Under the pieces are notes generated by a model. It was not told the origin of the DNA. It saw only the letters and a program-made list of their open reading frames with translations, and searched no databases. Positions 45,808 to 56,981 of a stretch of DNA of 64,000 bases are shown here, piece after piece. The stretch covers positions 325 through 64,324 of the forward strand of contig JAEEMQ010000024.1 in the NCBI GenBank assembly GCA_016283295.1, written 5' to 3'. Numbering within the stretch: the stretch's first letter is position 1; every line of letters begins with the position of its first letter. A program made the translations under genes and the position numbers. This DNA is from Alphaproteobacteria bacterium (GTDB lineage: Bacteria; Pseudomonadota; Alphaproteobacteria; RF32; CAG-239).

Positions 45808-46083
45808 TTAAAGCAAGGTTTGAATCAGCAACTTTTGCGCCGCCGCACACAGAGGATGACGTTGCAGTTGTTGCAAAAGTGCCTTCTTGAGCCGTAACTC
45901 GACCATTCTCACTTGCGCTTCTTTGCAAAATGAAAAATGCGTGGCATATTCAATCAAGATATTTTCATCTTGTCGTTCAACCAATACTACTTGAGCCTCA
46001 TGGCTGAAAAATGTGTGTTCCCACCAACGGCATAACTCGGGCAAACTCCCGGTTTTTGCCAATTCAATTTCTTTCTTGTTCAT
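45808..46083 (-). CDS. 91-aa hypothetical protein
   Basis: ORF only. No recognisable motif. Confidence 0.35.
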
Positions 46084-46128: not shown

Positions 46129-46545
46129 TTACTTTTTAAGCTCGGCGCGAATCGCGGTTGTCGAGCGCACCGGCAACAAATCTTTCGGGATACGGTTGCT
46201 GACGACATAGCGCACGCCCAAACCTTCCACAAACGCACGTTTTTCGGCACTATCGCCATCGGAATTAACAAAGAAAATATCCGGCTTTATTTGCTTAATT
46301 TCCTCGGCAAAATCGAGTTTGCCGGAGCCGCGCGCCACAAACGCCTGATGCACAAATTTTATGGACGACACCATATATAACCGCTCGGCTTCGTTATACA
46401 GTGTCGGGCGATGTTTGAGTTCTTCCACGGTTTTATCGGAGCCGATAGAGACGTACAAATCGCCGTATTGCGCGGCCTCTTCAAAAAAGCGAATATGTCC
46501 GCTGTGCAACACATCAAAACAACCCGATACAAACACCTTTGTCAT
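46129..46545 (-). CDS. cytidylyltransferase-family protein (TagD-like, HxGH)
   Basis: 138 aa. Motif VSGCFDVLHSGHIRFFEEA. Last gene of the glycan operon. Confidence 0.8.
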   Translation of the reverse strand: MTKVFVSGCFDVLHSGHIRFFEEAAQYGDLYVSIGSDKTVEELKHRPTLYNEAERLYMVSSIKFVHQAFVARGSGKLDFAEEIKQIKPDIFFVNSDGDSAEKRAFVEGLGVRYVVSNRIPKDLLPVRSTTAIRAELKK

Positions 46546-46546
46546 A

Positions 46547-47557
46547 TTATTTTTCCTCTATCGATAACAACGGAATAAAACCGAGAAGATAGAAACCCTC
46601 TCGATTGATTTTCTGTTTTTCCATAGCAAAAAAAGATTTGTAATCTTTGCCATCTGCCAACCATTTATACAGCTTTTTAATCTCCATTGATTGATTGTGT
46701 TTTTTATAATAGTTTTTTATTTTATTCAAATATTCTTTTTTATATTCAGCGGGCACATCGGCATCAAGGTAATTTATTCTGGAAATAAACTGCTCAGTCA
46801 ATATATTTTTGTATTTATCTATGTCTTTATATTTTTTTACTTCGTTATATATTAAACCATCAATATCTAGTATATCCAGCATTTTTATACTTTTTAATCT
46901 TTTTCCCATAATAGAATCTGCTCGTTGCAAATAAAAATACAAATCTTTATCAATCTCTGAATAAGTATTGCAATGAATCATATAAGCCCACAGCCAGTAC
47001 TCATCTTCGTTAATCAGCCCGACTGGAAAACGAATGTCATATTTATCTATAATCGATTTTTTATAAAGCTTGTTACATGAAACAACCGTAAGATCTTTTC
47101 TTACATCCGGTTGAACAGTGTAGATACCTGTTTTCTTCATATACCAGTCAAATCCTTTTTGTTTTCTTGTCAGTACATCGGTAGAAACTTTTCCGAAACA
47201 TTTAATATGCCCCTGAGCCATATCGGACTTATCATTAATAATGGCATCTGTTAAAATTTTCAAAGTGTGTTTATCGATGTAGTCGTCCGAATCTAAAAAA
47301 TAAACATAGTCACCTTCACATTTGGACAATCCATTATTTCTGCTAACCGCCAAACCTTGATTTTTTTGTGTAATTACTTTTATGCGCTTATCTTTTTTGG
47401 CATATTTATCCAAAACTTTACCGGAATCATCAGTAGAGCCGTCATTAACACAAACAATTTCAATATCCGATAATGTCTGATTTATCACACTATTGAGACA
47501 TTTAGGTAGATATTTCTCCACATTATATATCGGTATAATCACACTTACTTTAGGCAT
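46547..47557 (-). CDS. family 2 glycosyltransferase with shared C-terminal tail
   Basis: VSVIIPIYNVEKYLPKCLNSVINQT...VCVNDGSTD, DSDD. Tail YLLGFIPLLSIEEK. Confidence 0.85.
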   Translation of the reverse strand: MPKVSVIIPIYNVEKYLPKCLNSVINQTLSDIEIVCVNDGSTDDSGKVLDKYAKKDKRIKVITQKNQGLAVSRNNGLSKCEGDYVYFLDSDDYIDKHTLKILTDAIINDKSDMAQGHIKCFGKVSTDVLTRKQKGFDWYMKKTGIYTVQPDVRKDLTVVSCNKLYKKSIIDKYDIRFPVGLINEDEYWLWAYMIHCNTYSEIDKDLYFYLQRADSIMGKRLKSIKMLDILDIDGLIYNEVKKYKDIDKYKNILTEQFISRINYLDADVPAEYKKEYLNKIKNYYKKHNQSMEIKKLYKWLADGKDYKSFFAMEKQKINREGFYLLGFIPLLSIEEK

Positions 47558-47558
47558 T

Positions 47559-48293
47559 TTATTTTTCCTCTATCGATAACAACGGAATAAATCCGAATAA
47601 GTAGTATTTATCAATCTGTCTGTAAAAATCTGCCCATACACTGGCTATTTCTTGATTATTCAGCGCACTGCCGTTAGAGCCGATACCTGTTCCATCAAAA
47701 TCACAAATAATCATATTCAAATGTTTAAATACGCGCTCATGTTCTGTAAAAACAATCCACTTTTCCCAATCACTGGCAATCCTGTATTTCTCATTATATA
47801 ATCCATATTGTCTAAACAGGTCGTACTTGATGAATGCGGCCTGATGCCCTATGCGTCCGTTTCTAAAATATTGCTTACTGACTTTATCCGGATAATGATT
47901 CACCCGAATTTCTTTGCAGTTTTTTACTATTCTCATATCGCCATATAGCACATCGGCATCATAATCCTTATTCTTAAACACCTTTTCCAAAACGTCCTTT
48001 GTTGCAAAGCAATCTCCGCCGTTCATAAAATTAAGCCACTTACCTTTAGCCAGTTTAATGCCTTTATTCATGGCATTATAAATACCTTTATCCGGCTCCG
48101 AAATTAAAACGCTCATCTTTTTTTGATATTTTTTTAAGATATCTACCGTGCCGTCAGTGGAGCCTCCGTCAACCACAATCCATTCAAAATCCTGCCAGGT
48201 CTGATTGACAATGCTCTTGCAAGTGCGCTCTATTTCGTCCTTTATATTATAGCAAATTGTTATAATGCTTAAAGTAGGCGTTTTCTGCTTCAT
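47559..48293 (-). CDS. family 2 glycosyltransferase with shared C-terminal tail
   Basis: LSIITICYN...WIVVDGGSTDGT. Tail YLFGFIPLLSIEEK. Confidence 0.8.
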   Translation of the reverse strand: MKQKTPTLSIITICYNIKDEIERTCKSIVNQTWQDFEWIVVDGGSTDGTVDILKKYQKKMSVLISEPDKGIYNAMNKGIKLAKGKWLNFMNGGDCFATKDVLEKVFKNKDYDADVLYGDMRIVKNCKEIRVNHYPDKVSKQYFRNGRIGHQAAFIKYDLFRQYGLYNEKYRIASDWEKWIVFTEHERVFKHLNMIICDFDGTGIGSNGSALNNQEIASVWADFYRQIDKYYLFGFIPLLSIEEK

Positions 48294-48294
48294 C

Positions 48295-49299
48295 TTACAT
48301 TTCCTCTACACTTAATAACGGGATAAAACCGAACAGTTTATATGTTGCTTTGGTTTTTTGTTGAATTTCAAAAGATGATTGGTATGGATAATGATATTGC
48401 AAATAAGCATGTATACCTTTTGTTGGCTGATTGGCACAAACCAGCGCTGTTCGTGCCGGTGCGTCAGTTCGACGACAACAATTATCGTTCCATAACACGT
48501 CTGAATCTGTATTATCTTTATCCAATATTTTTAACAAAGCCCTTTTTTTTACAACATCAACAATGGATACTATTATGCGCTGAATATCGGTATCTTCGCG
48601 AAATCTATGCTTTCCGGTTCGTTTAAATTCTTCCTTAAACATATTGAAGGTGTCGATATAATACGATTTGCAATACGCATCAACATTGTGATGAGAATGG
48701 TAACGCCGAGCGATTTTGATATTTTGCTTTTGTTCAAAAACATCATATGAGTGCAAAACTTGTTTAGCATGATTATTGCCGCAGAACGGAAAATCGGCAC
48801 GTAATCGAACAATCGGATTGCCGTTCTTATCAAAAAAATCTTGTGGTTTAACCGGTCGGGAAAACATTGTATCGTCATTGGCATACAAAAAATGTTCTGA
48901 TAAATTGGGAATTTTATACAGATAAGCTTCAAGTGCAACCGAGTTAAAAGTCGGTAATGTATTTGCCGGCATCATTTCCGTATGGTCAACAATCGTTACC
49001 TTTTCGTTTTTCGGATTCAGCCACTTCGGTTTTTGATTATCGGTTACGATAAAAATATGATTTATCCACGGCGCATACATTTCCACCGAGCGCAACAAAT
49101 AGCGTAATTCATCAATGGTTTCAAAACGTTCCGGAATAATGTTTTTATCTTGTTGCAAGCCCAGTTTATTCTGCCAATAAATCCGTTTGGCGCGAAACTC
49201 CGGTGTGTCGTCGCACCACAAAATAACCAAGTCTATCGGAAAATCACAGGGATAATCTTTTTCCGGTTTATAGGTATTTTTAAGTGTATAGGTTTTCAT
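48295..49299 (-). CDS. Stealth-family hexose-1-phosphoryltransferase with shared C-terminal tail
   Basis: Stealth CR2-like IDELRYLLRSVEMYAPWINHIFIVTDNQKPKWLN and CR3-like FLYANDDTMF. Tail KLFGFIPLLSVEEM. Confidence 0.7.
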   Translation of the reverse strand: MKTYTLKNTYKPEKDYPCDFPIDLVILWCDDTPEFRAKRIYWQNKLGLQQDKNIIPERFETIDELRYLLRSVEMYAPWINHIFIVTDNQKPKWLNPKNEKVTIVDHTEMMPANTLPTFNSVALEAYLYKIPNLSEHFLYANDDTMFSRPVKPQDFFDKNGNPIVRLRADFPFCGNNHAKQVLHSYDVFEQKQNIKIARRYHSHHNVDAYCKSYYIDTFNMFKEEFKRTGKHRFREDTDIQRIIVSIVDVVKKRALLKILDKDNTDSDVLWNDNCCRRTDAPARTALVCANQPTKGIHAYLQYHYPYQSSFEIQQKTKATYKLFGFIPLLSVEEM

Positions 49300-50207
49300 T
49301 ATTTTTCCTCAATACTCAATATCGGCAAAAAACCGAACAATTTATATTTACGAACCTTTTTAATTTGATGACCGTACAATCCTTTTATAGGGTAGAATTT
49401 TGTTTTTTCCAAAACTTCCAGAAACTCTTGCGCAAACGGAACCGTATCATAATCCCATGGCTTACGGCCGGTATAGTGAATAATAAACGGATTTTTGAAT
49501 GATGCCGCCAGCTTAGAACTGGCATTTCTTTGAGCCCACGCGTGTGCACAAACGCAATATTTCAAATCAATCTGTTTATATTTGTTGGCAAAAATCATAT
49601 TCATGACATCTAAATCAGGCGCTTTTAAATCATCTTTCTTTTCAAGCGTTTTCGCTACCAATTTATCCGCAATTTTATTTTTACGCCAATAGTCTCCGCT
49701 GATGATAATGTTACCGGCTGCAAAATATTTATGTTTGGGATTGATTCCGAATAACTTCTTGCGATATTCATGATTCCATGGAAGTCCATATTTAACTCCG
49801 GTTTCTTCGGTCACGGCTGCCAGACCTTTATTTCCTAAATCTATATCGTAATATTTTTGAATATCGTCCATAAAAATAACATCGGAATCAGTGTATATAA
49901 TTTTATCATATTGCGGTAAAATATCCGCCAAAAAATAACGTGAAAAGGTTGACGTGCTATAGTGCTCTAAATTCGGAAAACGATCCAAATCGAATCTATC
50001 CATATTGACATAGGTCAATTTATAATTATCAAACCGATTTAACGATTGACGTATTAGCTTTTTCTTGGCATCGGATATATTTTGATCCAACACATAAATA
50101 TCTAAAAAAGCCTTTGTTTTATCCAATATGGAATACAGTAGTGTTGCCACTCCTACCGCGTATTTATCGTTACTTGCCGTTACAACCGGTATGGTTTTAT
50201 TTACCAT
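49299..50207 (-). CDS. family 8 glycosyltransferase (LgtC/RfaJ-like) with shared C-terminal tail
   Basis: Motifs VVTASNDKYAVGVATLLYSIL and YTDSDVIF (DxD). Tail KLFGFLPILSIEEK. Confidence 0.8.
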   Translation of the reverse strand: MVNKTIPVVTASNDKYAVGVATLLYSILDKTKAFLDIYVLDQNISDAKKKLIRQSLNRFDNYKLTYVNMDRFDLDRFPNLEHYSTSTFSRYFLADILPQYDKIIYTDSDVIFMDDIQKYYDIDLGNKGLAAVTEETGVKYGLPWNHEYRKKLFGINPKHKYFAAGNIIISGDYWRKNKIADKLVAKTLEKKDDLKAPDLDVMNMIFANKYKQIDLKYCVCAHAWAQRNASSKLAASFKNPFIIHYTGRKPWDYDTVPFAQEFLEVLEKTKFYPIKGLYGHQIKKVRKYKLFGFLPILSIEEK

Positions 50208-50219
50208 GGACCCAAACTC

Positions 50220-50429
50220 CTATACCAACTTTTTGCTGACTTTCATTAACGGAAGACCGAAGGTATAGTATTTGGTCGTGATGTTGTTTTCAAAACGACG
50301 AATCGTAAACACCGGTAAGCCCAAAATCTTCCACGTTTTTTTGCCGCCGCGTTGTGTCCAGCCATATATCGGCAAAATACAGAACAACTTAATAGTGCGT
50401 GAGTGCTTGATTACGTTTTGTTTAGCCAT
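50220..50429 (-). CDS. 69-aa basic mini-protein built of three tail-like motifs
   Basis: AGGAGAGAAAA ribosome-binding site. Motifs KLFCILPIYGW, KILGLPVFTIRR and YTFGLPLMKVSKK resemble the glycosyltransferase tails. First gene of the operon. Confidence 0.55.
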   Translation of the reverse strand: MAKQNVIKHSRTIKLFCILPIYGWTQRGGKKTWKILGLPVFTIRRFENNITTKYYTFGLPLMKVSKKLV

Positions 50430-50558: not shown

Positions 50559-52685
50559 TCAGCGATATTTTTTAATGATTGCAACCGCGTGCACAAAGTC
50601 CTCATTTTGGCCGTAATCCTCGATTTTTACCGGCAATTTGCGGCGCCAATTCGGGTGCTTGTCGCGGTCGGTTCCCGGCAGATTTTGCAGCACCTCCACC
50701 CCGAATATATCTTCAAGTTGCGCCAAATACACTATACTGCACGACGAAGATACATACGCCTCAACTGCTTCCATAATACCCTGCGGATAGCCTTCACCGT
50801 ACAGACAATCGCCCTGCCGCGGCTTATCTGCCGGCCATACACCTGCCCAATCCAGTGCCCCGAGCAAGCGTTTACGTTCATCTTCGCGTCCCTTATATTG
50901 ATTTTGCCGCTCGGCATCGTCAAGCATTTTCAGCTTATACATGGTTTCGATATCATAACCGAACCAGCGCATTTTGAGCGGTGCCATATCGTGAGTACCG
51001 ACGGAGCAAAACGCACTCGGCGCAAAATCAAACGGTGCCTTAAAATCGCCGCAGCCGTTCCAACGTTCCGCCCACAACACGCTCAGCGAATAAATGCCGC
51101 GTTCGTGAATTTTATCAATAAAACCGTCCGGCACGTTACCGATGCTTTCGCCCACCACCATACACTTATTCAAATAACTTTCCAATGCCACAATTCCGAG
51201 CATGTCGTCAAAGTTGTAATAAACATAAGTGCCGTCTTCGGAAGCGTCCGGAATAATATATAAACGCATCAGACTCATAACGTGGTCAATTCTGAGTGCC
51301 CCCGCACCTTGCATCGCCGCCCGCAAAATCTTGATAAACGGCCGATATGTCGCTTCTTTCAGGCGATACGGATTAAACGCGCCCAAACACCACTTTTGCC
51401 CGGTCGGGAAAAACACATCGGGCGGAGCTCCGGCACCGCAATTTTTGATAAACAAATCATTGTCCGCCCACAGCTCGGCGCTGTCTTTACACAAACCCAC
51501 CGGCAAATCGCGGTATAATCCGATGCTTAAACCGTTTTCTTCAATTATTTGATATACATTTTGTAATTGCGTATCGGCAACATATTGCAAAAACTTAAAA
51601 AACAAAATCTCTTTTTGATGTGATTTTTTAAACTCCGCCACCGCCGAAGAATGCGGATTTTGCAATTCTTTGGGCCACGCGTTCCACCCGCCGTAAACCT
51701 TATCTTTTTGCTCCGAATAAAGCGCCTGAAAAGTCGCCAGATTATCCAAATCAGCACCGGCTCGGGCACAATATTTCGCAAATTTTTGATATTCTTTGCT
51801 CTGCGGCTTGATAATGAAATTATCAAAAATTTTCTGCAACGCTTTTATTTTTAAATTATACACGGTCGTATAATCAATATCCTTGGCAGAACGCGCCGCG
51901 GCAAGAGCCTTTTCATCAACGTATTGCGGCTTGTAACCGGCCACCTTCTCCACATCAATATAAATCGGATTCAAGAATAATCGGCTGATGGATGAATAAG
52001 GGCTGGCGTTTTCCGGATAATCGTGAAACAGCACGTTGAGCGGATTAACCCCGATAACATCGGCGCCGACTTTTGCACACATCAGGGCAAAATTTTGCAA
52101 ATCGGTAAAATCGCCCACTCCCCAATTACGCGCACTGGTCAAAGAGTAGAGCTGAACGGCAAAACCCCACGGCTTTTTGTGGTGCAGAACTTCCGGCACA
52201 TAACATTTATCGGGAGTTACCGCCAGTACCGAGCGCGATACGTTTTCGCCCGCTTTCAATTCGATATCATAATATTGCGGCGCCAACTCGGAAGTAATTT
52301 CCAGTTGCACCCGCACATATTCGTTGCGACCGATTTGTTTGGTTTCGGCGATGTGCCAGGTATAATCAACCTTAATCGGCTTGCCGTTAAGATTAAGTTG
52401 TAAGCTCAGCGAATCCGTTTTTTCTGCCTTAATTACCGCATCAAAAACTTTTTTCCCGGTACGCACCACATAAATCGGCTCCAAAACGTATTGCCAGCGC
52501 CGGTCCTCGATTTTTTGCAACAAACGCTCGCTCTCATTTTTATCTTTGAGCTTAAATCCGAGATAATTTATCATCTGCCGCAACGTTTCGTCGTCAACGG
52601 TATATACTTTATGGTTTTGCGCCGCATCGCTGAAGGTTTTGGCAATGCCGATTTTTGCAAGTAATGTATCCCAACTGTCCGCCAA
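50559..52685 (-). CDS. malQ: 4-alpha-glucanotransferase (GH77 amylomaltase) with N-terminal extension
   Basis: 708 aa. Includes motifs YRDLPVGL and LRIDHVMSL. Confidence 0.85.
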   Translation of the reverse strand: MADSWDTLLAKIGIAKTFSDAAQNHKVYTVDDETLRQMINYLGFKLKDKNESERLLQKIEDRRWQYVLEPIYVVRTGKKVFDAVIKAEKTDSLSLQLNLNGKPIKVDYTWHIAETKQIGRNEYVRVQLEITSELAPQYYDIELKAGENVSRSVLAVTPDKCYVPEVLHHKKPWGFAVQLYSLTSARNWGVGDFTDLQNFALMCAKVGADVIGVNPLNVLFHDYPENASPYSSISRLFLNPIYIDVEKVAGYKPQYVDEKALAAARSAKDIDYTTVYNLKIKALQKIFDNFIIKPQSKEYQKFAKYCARAGADLDNLATFQALYSEQKDKVYGGWNAWPKELQNPHSSAVAEFKKSHQKEILFFKFLQYVADTQLQNVYQIIEENGLSIGLYRDLPVGLCKDSAELWADNDLFIKNCGAGAPPDVFFPTGQKWCLGAFNPYRLKEATYRPFIKILRAAMQGAGALRIDHVMSLMRLYIIPDASEDGTYVYYNFDDMLGIVALESYLNKCMVVGESIGNVPDGFIDKIHERGIYSLSVLWAERWNGCGDFKAPFDFAPSAFCSVGTHDMAPLKMRWFGYDIETMYKLKMLDDAERQNQYKGREDERKRLLGALDWAGVWPADKPRQGDCLYGEGYPQGIMEAVEAYVSSSCSIVYLAQLEDIFGVEVLQNLPGTDRDKHPNWRRKLPVKIEDYGQNEDFVHAVAIIKKYR

Positions 52686-52690
52686 TTATT

Positions 52691-54775
52691 TTACTCCGGT
52701 TTTTTGATTTCCACCACGACGACGCTCCAGGCCGGCACGCTGAAAGCTTCGCCCGGATTGAGTTTTTTCCCGTTGATTTGTGCGGAACTGTCGAACACCG
52801 CTTCAACCGCCAGATTTTTGCAAAATGCCGGCAGATGCCATTCTTCCGCAACGGCATTGGCGTTACATATCAGCATATAAGAGCAGTTTTCCTGATATAC
52901 AAAACTGGCAATGCTGCGGCGATTTTCCAAATACCAATCGGCTGTTTCAAACTCGTTGCCGTCATTTTTAATCCACATCATATCTTTGACTTTGAAGCGC
53001 GCAAATTTTTCAACCAATCTGCCGTCAAAGAATTTCATCCGTTTAAAGATACCCATTTTCTTGCGCAGCATAATCAGTTTGCGCACAAAAGCCGTAAGGT
53101 CGTGACCTTCTTTATCGATGGCTTCCCACACCAGCCACGTCATCACATTATCCTGACAATACGGGTTATTGTTGCCGAATTGAGTGTTGCCGAATTCGTC
53201 GCCTGATACCAGCATCGGCGTACCGAAACTCATTAAGAGAGTTGCCAACATTGCTTTTTTGCGCAGCAAACGGTTGCGTCTGACTTCCGCATCGTCGCTT
53301 TTGCCTTCCTGTCCGGAATTCCAACTCCAGTTACAATCGTTACCGTCGCGGTTGCGCTCGCCGTTAACCATATTGTGTTTTTCGTTATAGCTGACCAAAT
53401 CGGTTAAGCTGAAGCCGTCATGCGACGTAATGAAATTGATGCTGCTCCAAATATCGCGATTGGCATAACCGAAAACATCGCTGGAACCGGAAATACGGCT
53501 GGCAAACTCGCCCACCTGTTTTTCATCGCCGCGCCAAAAACGTCTGACCACATCACGATAGCGATCGTTCCATTCCGCCCATCCTTGAGGGAATGCACCG
53601 ATTTGATAGCCGTCCATGGTGGCATCCCACGGCTCGGCAATCATCTTGCAGGAACGCAGGCTCGGGTCTTGTCTGGCCGCCAGCAAAAAGCCGCTGTCTT
53701 GCGTAAACTTGCCGCGAACCCGGCTCAGGCTGGTAGCCAAATCCAAGCGGAAACCGTCGACGTGCATCACATCATGCCAATATCTCAGCGAATCCATCAC
53801 CAGAGTCAACACATACGGATTTTGCAAATTAAACGAGGCGCCGCAACCGGTGGTATCAAAATAAAAACGTTTGTTTTCGGCCTGCAAAGTATAGTAGCTT
53901 TCGTTATCAATGCCGCGATAACACAGCGTCGGCCCCATCTGATTGCCCTCAATCGTGTGATTATAAACCACGTCCAAAATAACTTCTTTGTTGTGCTCGT
54001 GCAGGGTTTTGACCATTCGCTTGAATTCGTCGATATCGTTACCGACCATATATTTAGCTTCCGGAATAAAATACGACAGCGTTTCGTAGCCCCAAAAATT
54101 ATCGATATACATTCCGTCTTTTTCGCCGAAAAACGCAAACACCGGCAACAGTTCCACCGCCGTCACGCCGAGCCAATCCAAATAACTCGTAACGCAATCC
54201 GCGGTAAGCCCCAAAAATTTGCCGCGATTACGGGTCGGCACTTTCGGGTGCAACATAGTATAGCCGCGCACGTGCATTTCATAAATCACGCTTTGTTCAA
54301 ACGGAATCTGCGGATGCTTATCCCGTCCCCAATCAAAAGTATCGGCAACCACCACCGACTTCGGCACATAAGGAGCGCTGTCGAGAGTGCTGAACGACAA
54401 ATCCTTTTGCGCGCTGTCAACATCATAGCCGAACAGAGCCTTATGCCAAATCAATCTGCCGATAAGCTTTTTGGCATACGGGTCCAACAGCAGTTTATTC
54501 GGATTGAAGCGCTTGCCCTCCTCCGGCTTATACGGCCCGTAAACGCGGTATCCGTAAACCTGCTCCGGCTTGATTCCTTCCAGATAAATATGCCAAACGT
54601 TATTATCGTTTTCGTTGATACAAAAACGCTTTTCTTCTTTGGTTCCGGTAGCGTTGAACAAGCAAAGTTCCACCTTTTCGGCATTGGCGGAAAACAGAGC
54701 AAAATTGACACCCTTGCCGTCGTAAGTTGCGCCAAGAGGATATGCCCGTCCCGCTGAAACTTTTATCTCTTTCAT
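52691..54775 (-). CDS. glgX: glycogen debranching enzyme GlgX (GH13)
   Basis: N-terminus GRAYPLGATYDGKGVNFALFS. Catalytic motifs VILDVVYNHT, GFRLDLA and AEPWD. Confidence 0.9.
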   Translation of the reverse strand: MKEIKVSAGRAYPLGATYDGKGVNFALFSANAEKVELCLFNATGTKEEKRFCINENDNNVWHIYLEGIKPEQVYGYRVYGPYKPEEGKRFNPNKLLLDPYAKKLIGRLIWHKALFGYDVDSAQKDLSFSTLDSAPYVPKSVVVADTFDWGRDKHPQIPFEQSVIYEMHVRGYTMLHPKVPTRNRGKFLGLTADCVTSYLDWLGVTAVELLPVFAFFGEKDGMYIDNFWGYETLSYFIPEAKYMVGNDIDEFKRMVKTLHEHNKEVILDVVYNHTIEGNQMGPTLCYRGIDNESYYTLQAENKRFYFDTTGCGASFNLQNPYVLTLVMDSLRYWHDVMHVDGFRLDLATSLSRVRGKFTQDSGFLLAARQDPSLRSCKMIAEPWDATMDGYQIGAFPQGWAEWNDRYRDVVRRFWRGDEKQVGEFASRISGSSDVFGYANRDIWSSINFITSHDGFSLTDLVSYNEKHNMVNGERNRDGNDCNWSWNSGQEGKSDDAEVRRNRLLRKKAMLATLLMSFGTPMLVSGDEFGNTQFGNNNPYCQDNVMTWLVWEAIDKEGHDLTAFVRKLIMLRKKMGIFKRMKFFDGRLVEKFARFKVKDMMWIKNDGNEFETADWYLENRRSIASFVYQENCSYMLICNANAVAEEWHLPAFCKNLAVEAVFDSSAQINGKKLNPGEAFSVPAWSVVVVEIKKPE

Positions 54776-54782
54776 ATTGCCC

Positions 54783-56981
54783 CTATCTCAAAGGTTTTAA
54801 CACAATGGTAGAAAGCGGCGGCAATATCAATTCTATCGAATACGGTAAATTGTTGACGCCGTAATTCTGTGCCTGCTTCGGTCCTTCGTTGCGCACACCG
54901 CTGCCCCAATAATTTCTGTCGTCGCTGTTGAAAATTTCCTGATACGCACAAGCCTCACGCACCCCGACGCGGAAATTATGACGTACCACCGGCGTAAAGT
55001 TGCAAATCACAATTACATAATCGTCCGGATTGTGACCTTTGCGGAAGTACGAAATCACGCTGTCGTCGCAGTTGGCATAATCTATCCATTCAAACCCGCG
55101 CGAATCGAAATCTTCTTCATACAACGGCGCATTGCCCCGATACATCAAATTCAAATCGCGCACGCAGTTTTGCATACCCTGATACATCGGATATTGCAAC
55201 AAATGCCAACGCAGACTTTCGCCGGAATTCCATTCCCAATCCTGCGCAAATTCGTTGCCCATAAACAACAGTTTTTTGCCCGGATGAGTCCACATAAAGC
55301 CGTAATAAGCGCGCAAGCTGGCAAATTTTTGCCATTCGTCGCCCGGCATTTTAGAGAGCATTGAGCCCTTGCCGTGCACCACCTCGTCATGCGAAATCGG
55401 CAAAATAAAGTTTTCGTTGAAGGCATACAGCAACCCGAAAGTCAACAGGCCGTGATGATATTTGCGGTGTACCGGTTCATGGCTGATATAGCGCAACGTG
55501 TCGTTCATCCAACCCATGTTCCACTTAAAGCCGAAACCGAGACCGCCGGCCGAAACCGGACGCGATACCATCGGCCACGCGGTTGATTCTTCGGCACAAG
55601 AAAACGAGCCCGGAGATTGCGAATAAATCAGTTCGTTCATTTTGCGCAAAAAGGCGATTGCCTCCAGATTCTCGTTACCGCCGTAAACATTCGGAATCCA
55701 CTCGCCGGACTTACGCGAATAATCCAAATAAAGCATTGAAGCCACCGCATCAACCCGCAAACCGTCGATATGAAATTCCTTGAGCCAATAAAGCGCACTC
55801 ACGCATAAAAAGTTGCAAACTTCGGTGCGGCCGAAATTATAAATTTTGGTGCCCCAATCTTTTTGCTCGCCCTTACGCGGATCGGCATGTTCGTATAAAC
55901 AGGTACCGTCAAACTCGGCCAAACCGTGCCCGTCTTTCGGGAAATGCGCCGGCACCCAATCCATAATCACACCGATGCCTGCCTGATGGAATTTATCAAT
56001 CATATAACGAAAATCGTCCGGATTACCGAAGCGCGAAGTCGGCGCAAACAAACCGGTAATCTGATATCCCCACGAGGCGTCGAGCGGGTGCTCACACAGC
56101 GGCAGAAATTCAACATGAGTAAAGCCCATATTGCTGACGTACGGCACCAGTCTATCGGCAAATTCGCGATAGGTCAAAAACTCGGATCCGTTATCGCCTT
56201 TGCGCCGCCATGAACCCAGGTGCACTTCATAAATCGACATCGGTTTATCATAAATATTGTTGTTGGCCCGATAATTAAGCCAAGCTTCATCGCCCCATTT
56301 ATAATGATTTATATCAAACACAATCGAGGCAGTTTTCGGGCGCATTTCGGAAAATGTTGCCATCGGGTCGGCTTTACTCAAAATATGGCCTTCATAAGTT
56401 TTGACCTCAAACTTATAATATTCGCCTTCCACCAAATTCGGAATAAAAATATCCCAAATACCGCAGCTGATGTGTTTGCGCATCACATTGATACGACCGT
56501 CCCAGTTGTTGAAACTGCCGACCACCGATACGCGTTTGGCATTCGGAGCCCATACCGCAAAAGCAACACCTTTGACCCCGTCCATTTCAATCAGGTGCGC
56601 GCCGAGTTTTTTATACATTTCGCGATGGTTACCCTGCGCAAACAAATAGGCATCAATATCACCGATGGTTGCCGGAAAACGATACACGTCTTCGGCTTCG
56701 TAAACATGACCTTGGTCATTGGTGATTTTGAACTTGTATTTGAATTCTTCGGTTTTATCCGAATTGAATTGGAAAAAGCCGCGATCATCAATCTTCGTCA
56801 TTTTACCGAGAGATTTTTTGGCGGCATCAATTACTTCTATTTCTGTAGCAAACGGTTGATACGCACGAATAAAAACTTTTTTGCTTCCCTTGTCGCGGTG
56901 TATTCCCAAAACCGCAAAAACATTTCCGTGATCACCGTTGATAATGGCGTCGATTTCTTCTTTAGGCAACATATTATCCAT
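54783..56981 (-). CDS. glgB: 1,4-alpha-glucan branching enzyme GlgB (GH13)
   Basis: 732 aa. Motifs VIMDWVPAHF, GLRVDAVASMLY and FILPISHDEVVHGK. Confidence 0.92.
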   Translation of the reverse strand: MDNMLPKEEIDAIINGDHGNVFAVLGIHRDKGSKKVFIRAYQPFATEIEVIDAAKKSLGKMTKIDDRGFFQFNSDKTEEFKYKFKITNDQGHVYEAEDVYRFPATIGDIDAYLFAQGNHREMYKKLGAHLIEMDGVKGVAFAVWAPNAKRVSVVGSFNNWDGRINVMRKHISCGIWDIFIPNLVEGEYYKFEVKTYEGHILSKADPMATFSEMRPKTASIVFDINHYKWGDEAWLNYRANNNIYDKPMSIYEVHLGSWRRKGDNGSEFLTYREFADRLVPYVSNMGFTHVEFLPLCEHPLDASWGYQITGLFAPTSRFGNPDDFRYMIDKFHQAGIGVIMDWVPAHFPKDGHGLAEFDGTCLYEHADPRKGEQKDWGTKIYNFGRTEVCNFLCVSALYWLKEFHIDGLRVDAVASMLYLDYSRKSGEWIPNVYGGNENLEAIAFLRKMNELIYSQSPGSFSCAEESTAWPMVSRPVSAGGLGFGFKWNMGWMNDTLRYISHEPVHRKYHHGLLTFGLLYAFNENFILPISHDEVVHGKGSMLSKMPGDEWQKFASLRAYYGFMWTHPGKKLLFMGNEFAQDWEWNSGESLRWHLLQYPMYQGMQNCVRDLNLMYRGNAPLYEEDFDSRGFEWIDYANCDDSVISYFRKGHNPDDYVIVICNFTPVVRHNFRVGVREACAYQEIFNSDDRNYWGSGVRNEGPKQAQNYGVNNLPYSIELILPPLSTIVLKPLR

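Follow-up and report, generated by a model that had tools for sequence, protein, structure and literature searches.

Peripheral glycosyltransferases must locate lipid-linked substrates at the membrane, and the peripheral lipopolysaccharide (LPS) and lipooligosaccharide (LOS) glycosyltransferases LgtC and WaaJ carry C-terminal membrane-association segments. The known anchors of peripheral glycosyltransferases are amphipathic alpha-helices, each specific to its enzyme family. To our knowledge, the co-localisation of glycosyltransferase sets in bacteria is poorly understood. The available part of one report describes a C-terminal membrane-association segment in the teichoic-acid glycosyltransferase TagA (PMC6493773), and according to the accessible parts of two others, many glycosyltransferases of the Golgi have short tails that are read by the adaptor GOLPH3/Vps74 (PMC13408441, PMC12478125). 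Here we analyse a stretch of 64,000 nucleotides from the genome of an uncultured rumen/gut alphaproteobacterium (assembly GCA_016283295.1, contig JAEEMQ010000024.1, positions 325 to 64,324; hereafter the window), in which the enzymes encoded by four adjacent glycan-synthesis genes end in a common peptide of about 16 residues. This tail corresponds to one unit of a predicted beta-hairpin repeat of about 20 residues, for which no annotation exists.

The four enzymes, a GT8 glycosyltransferase, a Stealth-family hexose-1-phosphate transferase, a WcaE-like GT2 (NCBIfam wcaE-like, 1.4e-28, which is under the family cut-off) and a further GT2 (Table 1), all share the C-terminal pattern [YK]-x-L-[LF]-G-F-[IL]-P-[LI]-L-S-[IV]-E-E-[KM], as read from the list of open reading frames (ORFs) and the sequence. 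The proteins end in ..RKYKLFGFLPILSIEEK (GT8), ..ATYKLFGFIPLLSVEEM (Stealth), ..DKYYLFGFIPLLSIEEK (WcaE-like GT2) and ..REGFYLLGFIPLLSIEEK (last GT2). At the DNA level, a repeat search returns the junctions as a 50-nucleotide repeat family with four copies (100, 90, 72 and 62% identity), and the last 33 nucleotides, TTATTTTTCCTCTATCGATAACAACGGAATAAA, are the same in both GT2 genes, at 46547 and at 47559. Stop codon and next start codon lie one nucleotide apart or, at 49299, overlap by one nucleotide. The tail shared by four adjacent enzymes, the identity over 33 nucleotides, the GAGGA motif and the close spacing had been reported in an initial annotation made from the letters alone, and all of them are present in the sequence. 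The same annotation had assigned the enzymes to different folds, which holds only in part: the families differ, but GT2 and GT8 are both GT-A enzymes, so that the operon holds three families and not four folds. In relatives, the tail is also carried by a DUF459-like protein, a 324-residue protein without assignment, GT2+GT4 fusions and, at the N-terminus, a hexapeptide acyltransferase (MKKEIRWKLFGFIPLFSIKEK in L005; L and G numbers denote loci and genomes, P numbers proteins, and C numbers contigs of the source genome). Once these relatives are counted, the point about unrelated folds becomes true.

The tail had been taken for a C-terminal motif standing on its own, a view that has to be given up, as it is instead one hairpin of a repeat found at N-termini and within proteins too, and on its own as a free protein. 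The consensus of the repeat is K-[YK]-[KY]-L-F-G-x(1,2)-P-L-L-x-[IV]-charged, and the tail of the GT8 enzyme aligns with positions 2-23, that is hairpin 1, of a 62-position module profile. The free form is represented by the 69-residue protein encoded at the head of the operon, whose profile matched 94 clusters in a search of 1.84e9 representative proteins. About a third of these clusters are stand-alone proteins of 59-93 residues. The remaining ones carry a module of about 57 residues on larger proteins, mostly at the C-terminus, with internal copies in P0010, P0080, P0085 and P0086 and N-terminal copies in P0054, P0057, P0060, P0063 and P0090. The number of units per protein ranges from one to six or more, and the partner domains are GT2, GT4, GT8, Stealth, DUF4422, DUF6492, FUT8-like, TupA-type ATP-grasp and FkbM methyltransferase.

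A six-frame search of the 1.65-Mb assembly (45.5% G+C) with the strict tail pattern, along the lines proposed in the initial annotation, returned the four operon ORFs only. The strict pattern proved too narrow, and looser copies on contigs C22 and C10 of the same genome were found later by profile search. Tails of two units are present in G003, in G019 and in the source genome itself, where C10 (L021:1233-2240, plus strand) encodes a GT2 of 335 residues with a two-hairpin tail ending in ..KCYLFDCIPLLTVRKYEGKKYIKLFGKIPLYKVKTYYK; the repeat thus extends beyond the operon of the window. Contig C22 (L020:4457-4879, minus strand) encodes a protein of 140 residues, in which an N-terminal three-hairpin module is followed by a coiled-coil-like region ending in ..IRVYHAELLERLDNLPMKK, and which forms one small family with P0054, P0057 and P0060.

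Among 60 relatives surveyed, 27 of the 37 that belong to the window's genus contain the module, with as many as 9 matches in one genome, and in 24 further families of the class it is almost absent. Within the genus, the single-hairpin 'SIEEK' form has a patchy distribution and always groups at one locus. Apart from one Campylobacter protein, the named sources of the profile matches are metagenome-assembled genomes from rumen or gut labelled Alphaproteobacteria, 'Rhodospirillales' or 'Azospirillum'. The GT2 protein P0085 (735 residues) of the cultured Campylobacter sp. RM12637 carries at least six tandem units in mid-protein (residues about 340-480), arranged as 40-residue double units that are near-identical to each other, and experiments on the repeat could make use of this strain as a tractable source.

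The last 20 or so residues of the four enzymes, which lie beyond the end of the catalytic matches, are covered by no Pfam or NCBIfam model, and neither is the 69-residue protein. Comparison of 29 module homologues with Pfam at E-values up to 10 yielded chance matches only, with no CW_binding_1, MORN or other repeat; a sequence search of the PDB returned no informative relative, and a full-text literature search for the motif strings found no paper. A keyword search of the literature brought up general analogues only. The tail is hence not a known annotated domain terminus, in agreement with the initial annotation, which had not recognised it as a named motif. The module is undescribed, but of a familiar functional kind.

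Comparison with homologues bears out that the tail is portable, one peptide being found on many unrelated enzymes, and that it is an addition to otherwise complete enzymes. Among 120 Stealth homologues listed, it is confined to the 4 closest. Of the more distant ones, the eight whose ends were read terminate in ..KS.FE[KL] or similar, which corresponds to QSSFEI in the protein of the window, so that about 19 residues are appended there past the canonical end of the Stealth domain. In GT8 orthologues the tail is kept down to 39% identity. P0004 and P0005, two GT8 orthologues of about 65% identity, end instead in a Lys-rich tail of another kind (..FSIKN...KYKILTILFMKFKIKRK), and one more distant orthologue has no tail. 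The Lys-rich tail appears to be a further appendage of the hairpin type, which suggests that tail types are swappable on one catalytic domain.

The proposal that the terminal codons of each tail provide the ribosome-binding site of the next gene is well supported by sequence comparison. At each operon junction, 8 nucleotides separate the end of GAGGA from the next ATG. In a table of 36 tails from 12 loci, GAGGA or AAGGA is found in 31 of 31 tails with an adjacent start and in one of the five tails without one. Codon GAG or AAG is used in all 31 of the former, as compared to genome frequencies of 28% and 33% for these rare codons, and replacements of E by K in the tails retain AGGA. Of the five tails that no start adjoins, the other four have lost the motif and kept the peptide (GAAGAC in L003 and L018, GATGAT in L005, GAGAAA in L012). 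The peptide thus persists without a Shine-Dalgarno (SD) motif and is not a by-product of it. SD-like motifs precede about 50% of the long ORFs in the genome versus a background of 7%; the 3' end of 16S rRNA was not found in the assembly. We propose that GAG-GAA or AAG-GAx forms an SD 8 nucleotides before the next start, by which the genes would be translationally coupled. In both GT2 tails a small stem is predicted (46552-46578 and 47564-47590, minus strand), in which UUCC from the Pro codon region pairs with GGAA of the SD. This stem, whose statistics do not set it apart from shuffled sequence, might keep the SD masked as long as the tail has not been translated.

Cassette exchange at the tail junctions, which the initial annotation had inferred, is partly supported: enzyme sets do differ between flanks of about 90% identity, with homology resuming in the last tail, but the synonymous divergence of the tails speaks against frequent gene conversion. 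The clearest case is G017, where malQ, the 69-residue gene, the enzyme block, the cytidylyltransferase gene and an arginine decarboxylase gene follow each other as in the window. In the flanks, its identity to the window is 88-91% (91% for the DNA of the cytidylyltransferase gene); homology breaks off precisely at the stop codon of the 69-residue gene (50220) and sets in again at 46584 within the last tail. The enzyme block of G017 encodes a 330-residue unknown protein, a GT2 of 361 residues, a WcaE-like GT2 (68% identical) and a GT2 of 316 residues, which is only 33% identical to the last GT2 of the window and has an identical tail. L001, L003, L005, L006, L018 and L019 each hold a further enzyme set, including fusions (Stealth+GT2, GT2+GT4) and decayed cassettes. 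L015 is the sole relative examined with the gene order of the window; in all others the composition of the operon differs. In L001 and L006 the locus lies between clpX and recA, which means that the whole block occupies different genomic sites in different species. At L001:13903-14760, each of two junctions is followed by an ATG that opens only a short or interrupted frame, in one case the apparent start of a lost cytidylyltransferase gene (MKKVFV..); these are decayed cassettes with tails and SD intact.

These data may suggest that conserved junctions of about 40-50 base pairs bound the enzyme cassettes and probably aid their replacement by homologous recombination, which would make the region between the conserved 69-residue gene and the cytidylyltransferase gene a glycan-diversity locus. 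The latter gene is the end of the locus in L005, L006, L009 and L015 as well. Codon identity of tails is 0.545 within and 0.474 between genomes (permutation p 0.007, relatedness being ignored). The identical tail codons of the two GT2 genes of the window, for which the chance expectation is about 5e-5, are already identical in the close relative L015; given the free synonymous variation among tails, this identity is a local event.

The 69-residue ORF is a real gene, as it heads equivalent loci (it stands at the locus head in every relative examined, namely L001, L003, L005, L006, L009, L012, L015 and L019) and has 28 small homologues, in which L15, F16, P20, W33, G37, Y54, Y55 and G58 are invariant. 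Its stop codon overlaps TAGGAG, 9 nucleotides ahead of the ATG of the GT8 gene. The protein is strongly basic (14 K+R, 1 D+E, isoelectric point 10.7) and contains nine aromatic residues. AlphaFold2 models it with a mean predicted local distance difference test (pLDDT) score of 81 as three beta-hairpins, with strands at 8-15, 19-27, 30-35, 38-45, 51-56 and 59-65 and a conserved F/L-G at each intra-repeat turn. According to this model, the protein would be a beta-meander with its three turns on one sheet edge and polar linkers (TQRGGKK, RRFENNITTK) on the opposite one. Weak resemblances to the beta-meanders of OspA and TarM in Foldseek were not significant and were not used. When the GT8 enzyme is modelled by AlphaFold, the pLDDT exceeds 90 in its catalytic domain and falls below 50 for linker and tail (residues 279-302), which are in coil with no secondary structure. 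As modelled, the tail does not pack onto its own enzyme, and its lack of structure on the monomer is consistent with a peptide dependent on the surface of a partner.

Based on this dataset, we hypothesize that evolution has attached the hairpin unit repeatedly, in one, two, three or more copies, to cytoplasmic glycan-synthesis enzymes of unrelated families. The tail probably acts as a tether, either to the membrane or between the enzymes themselves. A peripheral membrane anchor is its most likely role, as we infer from a greasy-tipped hairpin on enzymes of soluble fold: an L-F-G-(F)-I segment with Lys, Tyr or Trp flanks is predicted at or around each hairpin turn, and the turn edge could dip into the cytoplasmic leaflet of the inner membrane, which would hold the otherwise soluble enzymes near their lipid-linked acceptor. 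Single-hairpin tails may also pair among themselves or with the 69-residue protein and cluster the enzymes of one pathway. Such pairing is a serious second possibility, compatible with a membrane anchor, since one hairpin alone does not make a stable fold and the loci with single-hairpin tails always include the free three-hairpin gene. As a whole, the data appear best explained by a portable hairpin unit that combines a peripheral anchor, a built-in ribosome-binding site and a cassette junction, an explanation that we consider probable with some reserve. That the tails and the 69-residue protein co-assemble by strand addition into one membrane beta-sheet, into which any enzyme acquiring a tail would be recruited automatically, seems unlikely.

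Other explanations have to be weighed against this one. The tails may be, in the main, docking peptides that add strands to the free three-hairpin sheet or to each other and so build a pathway complex, with membrane contact being secondary. The 69-residue gene stands at the head of every examinable locus with single-hairpin tails, the tail is disordered alone in the GT8 model, the predicted hairpins are hydrophobic on both faces when the sequence is read against the modelled topology, and recognition of tails by GOLPH3, as described in the accessible parts of the reports (PMC13408441, PMC12478125), offers an analogy. Many enzymes, however, own a complete three-hairpin module, so that no scaffold is needed, and the 69-residue gene is also found without adjoining tailed enzymes (L017/L022), which leaves docking as the principal role rather unlikely. 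A hairpin period of about 20 residues with conserved aromatics and Gly recalls the choline-binding and cell-wall-binding hairpin repeats, which bind teichoic acid. By this likeness, the hairpins could bind the growing glycan, a phospho-polymer, or the undecaprenyl or lipid A carrier; the basic character of the module would fit, and the Stealth phosphotransferase and the cytidylyltransferase in the locus suggest an anionic product. Weak fold resemblances to the TarM beta-sheet domain, none of them significant, point the same way. We regard this as very unlikely in view of the absence of a Pfam match to CW_binding, MORN or other repeats at E-values up to 10; besides, the products of the partner enzymes are chemically diverse, so that only the lipid carrier or the membrane could be a ligand common to all of them, and this merges with the membrane anchor.

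It is also conceivable that the junction is a DNA-level cassette of ribosome-binding site, stop and start that spreads by recombination, or an in-frame mobile repeat of the Rickettsia palindromic element (RPE), repetitive extragenic palindromic (REP) or attC type, and that the peptide is a tolerated by-product. The four 50-nucleotide junction repeats with 33 nucleotides identical between two genes, the cassette-like architecture with variable content and the slight excess of within-genome codon identity are what such an element would produce. However, conservation is seen in the peptide and not at synonymous sites (codon identity about 0.5), the tail persists without a following gene and without a ribosome-binding site in L003, L005 and L018, and the unit is also N-terminal and internal in proteins. 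Folding of the junctions gave no significant hairpin (z-scores +0.35 to -1.03), and neither an integrase nor a transposase was found within the locus in the ORF list or by Pfam. Judged from this protein-level conservation, the explanation is largely refuted and highly improbable. An integron attC-like or a REP/RPE-like element was rejected on the same codon identity, the lack of significant hairpins and the lack of a recombinase in the locus. A degradation tag or secretion signal was rejected on sequence, given the charged EEK end, the N-terminal and internal copies and the cytoplasmic nucleotide-sugar enzymes.

Several observations weigh against the portable anchor and junction unit that we prefer. 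The hydrophobic stretch comprises only about 10 residues, and two hydrophobic hairpin faces would equally fit burial in a protein-protein interface. The acidic E-E end of the tail in the window is unusual for a binder of anionic lipids, although it may be there for the ribosome-binding site. The AlphaFold2 alignment for the 69-residue protein held only 29 sequences, the greasy edge rests on strand topology and not on coordinates, and a Foldseek search of the model against the PDB returned nothing significant (best E-value 0.26), hence no structural homologue for membrane binding. With regard to translation, the table of tails counts orthologous junctions, so that its nominal P values of 8e-5 and 1e-15 are illustrative only, and the terminal gene of L019 retains GAGGA though no gene follows. 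With regard to exchange, tails vary freely at synonymous sites, so that gene conversion is at most occasional and homogenisation weak; and as selection keeps a tail on every cassette, breakpoints would seem to fall at tails under any mechanism of replacement.

The features of the locus are listed in Table 1. The genes glgB, glgX and malQ (window positions 50559-56981, minus strand) lie directly upstream of the glycan operon on the same strand. Beyond the cytidylyltransferase gene follows an ORF of 91 residues (45808-46083, minus strand) with no Pfam match, which has a 93-residue counterpart in L005 and L015; a segment of roughly 370 nucleotides with this ORF is absent from the locus of G017, which is otherwise collinear. 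A scan for promoters and terminators gave no more sites than in shuffled sequences.

Table 1. Genes and tails of the glycan-synthesis operon (window positions)
Feature	Position	Strand	Detail
Cytidylyltransferase-like gene without tail; conserved 3' flank of the variable block	46129-46545	minus	CTP_transf_like, 2.4e-13
GT2 with tail; last variable cassette	46547-47557	minus	336 aa; Glycos_transf_2 PF00535, 4e-41
Tail of last GT2	about 46547-46597	minus	GAGGA 46554-46558
WcaE-like GT2 with tail	47559-48293	minus	244 aa; Glycos_transf_2 PF00535, 6e-26
Tail of WcaE-like GT2	about 47559-47609	minus	GAGGA 47566-47570
Stealth-family hexose-1-phosphate transferase with tail	48295-49299	minus	334 aa; Stealth_CR2, 9e-44
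Tail of Stealth gene	about 48295-48345	minus	GAGGA 48302-48306
GT8 glycosyltransferase with tail	49299-50207	minus	302 aa; Glyco_transf_8 PF01501, 3.9e-45
Tail of GT8 gene	about 49299-49349	minus	GAGGA 49306-49310
69-aa basic protein with three hairpin units; operon head	50220-50429	minus	three degenerate motif copies

A portable, sequence-defined hairpin tag across enzyme families would constitute a new domain that can be annotated, one that now hides behind 'hypothetical' proteins of 60-70 residues and unexplained enzyme tails in rumen and gut Alphaproteobacteria and in Campylobacter. It would offer a handle on the localisation and clustering of enzymes and possibly a tether for glyco-engineering. 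At the junctions, selection on the protein, on translation and possibly on recombination would meet in a single stretch of DNA. Should the strand-addition sheet be true, it would act as a plug-and-play 'address tag' for bacterial glycosyltransferases, a functional analogue of tail recognition by GOLPH3 in the Golgi; and with the tag fused to a recombination and translation junction, the gain of a cassette would bring expression, localisation and complex membership in one step.

Among described systems, the membrane-association segments of LgtC, WaaJ and TagA are similar in being short basic, aromatic and hydrophobic appendages outside the catalytic domain of enzymes that use lipid-linked acceptors at the cytoplasmic membrane face. 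The tail likewise follows the catalytic domain, with K, R or Y flanking a hydrophobic core. It does not share the amphipathic helix, as beta-hairpins are modelled for the repeat and coil with a pLDDT below 50 for the tail of GT8. In contrast to these family-specific helices, the tail belongs to a predicted beta-hairpin repeat common to unrelated families, in one to six or more copies, at any position and also as a free protein. GOLPH3/Vps74, as far as the accessible parts of the reports describe it, provides a parallel in that one short peptide on many glycosyltransferases is potentially read by one small partner. However, GOLPH3 is eukaryotic and unrelated in sequence and fold, its tails belong to integral membrane proteins, and an adaptor role of the 69-residue protein is hypothetical.

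By SD spacing, adjacent stop and start, and dependence of the SD on a downstream start, the junctions of the window appear to fit the translationally coupled operon type. As in classical coupled junctions (ATGA, TAAATG), the SD lies inside the upstream coding sequence, and stop and start adjoin or overlap. Unlike there, the dual-coding junction is reused at every boundary as part of a shared protein module, and the choice of GAG or AAG tracks the downstream start (31/31). No flippase, polymerase or ABC transporter gene was evident among the ORFs flanking the locus, as judged from the ORF list and Pfam. With O-antigen, LOS and capsule loci the locus shares flanks of about 90% identity, between which the enzymes are replaced or far more divergent in close relatives; it differs from them in that every cassette ends in a shared coding junction of about 40-50 base pairs, which provides internal homology at each boundary.

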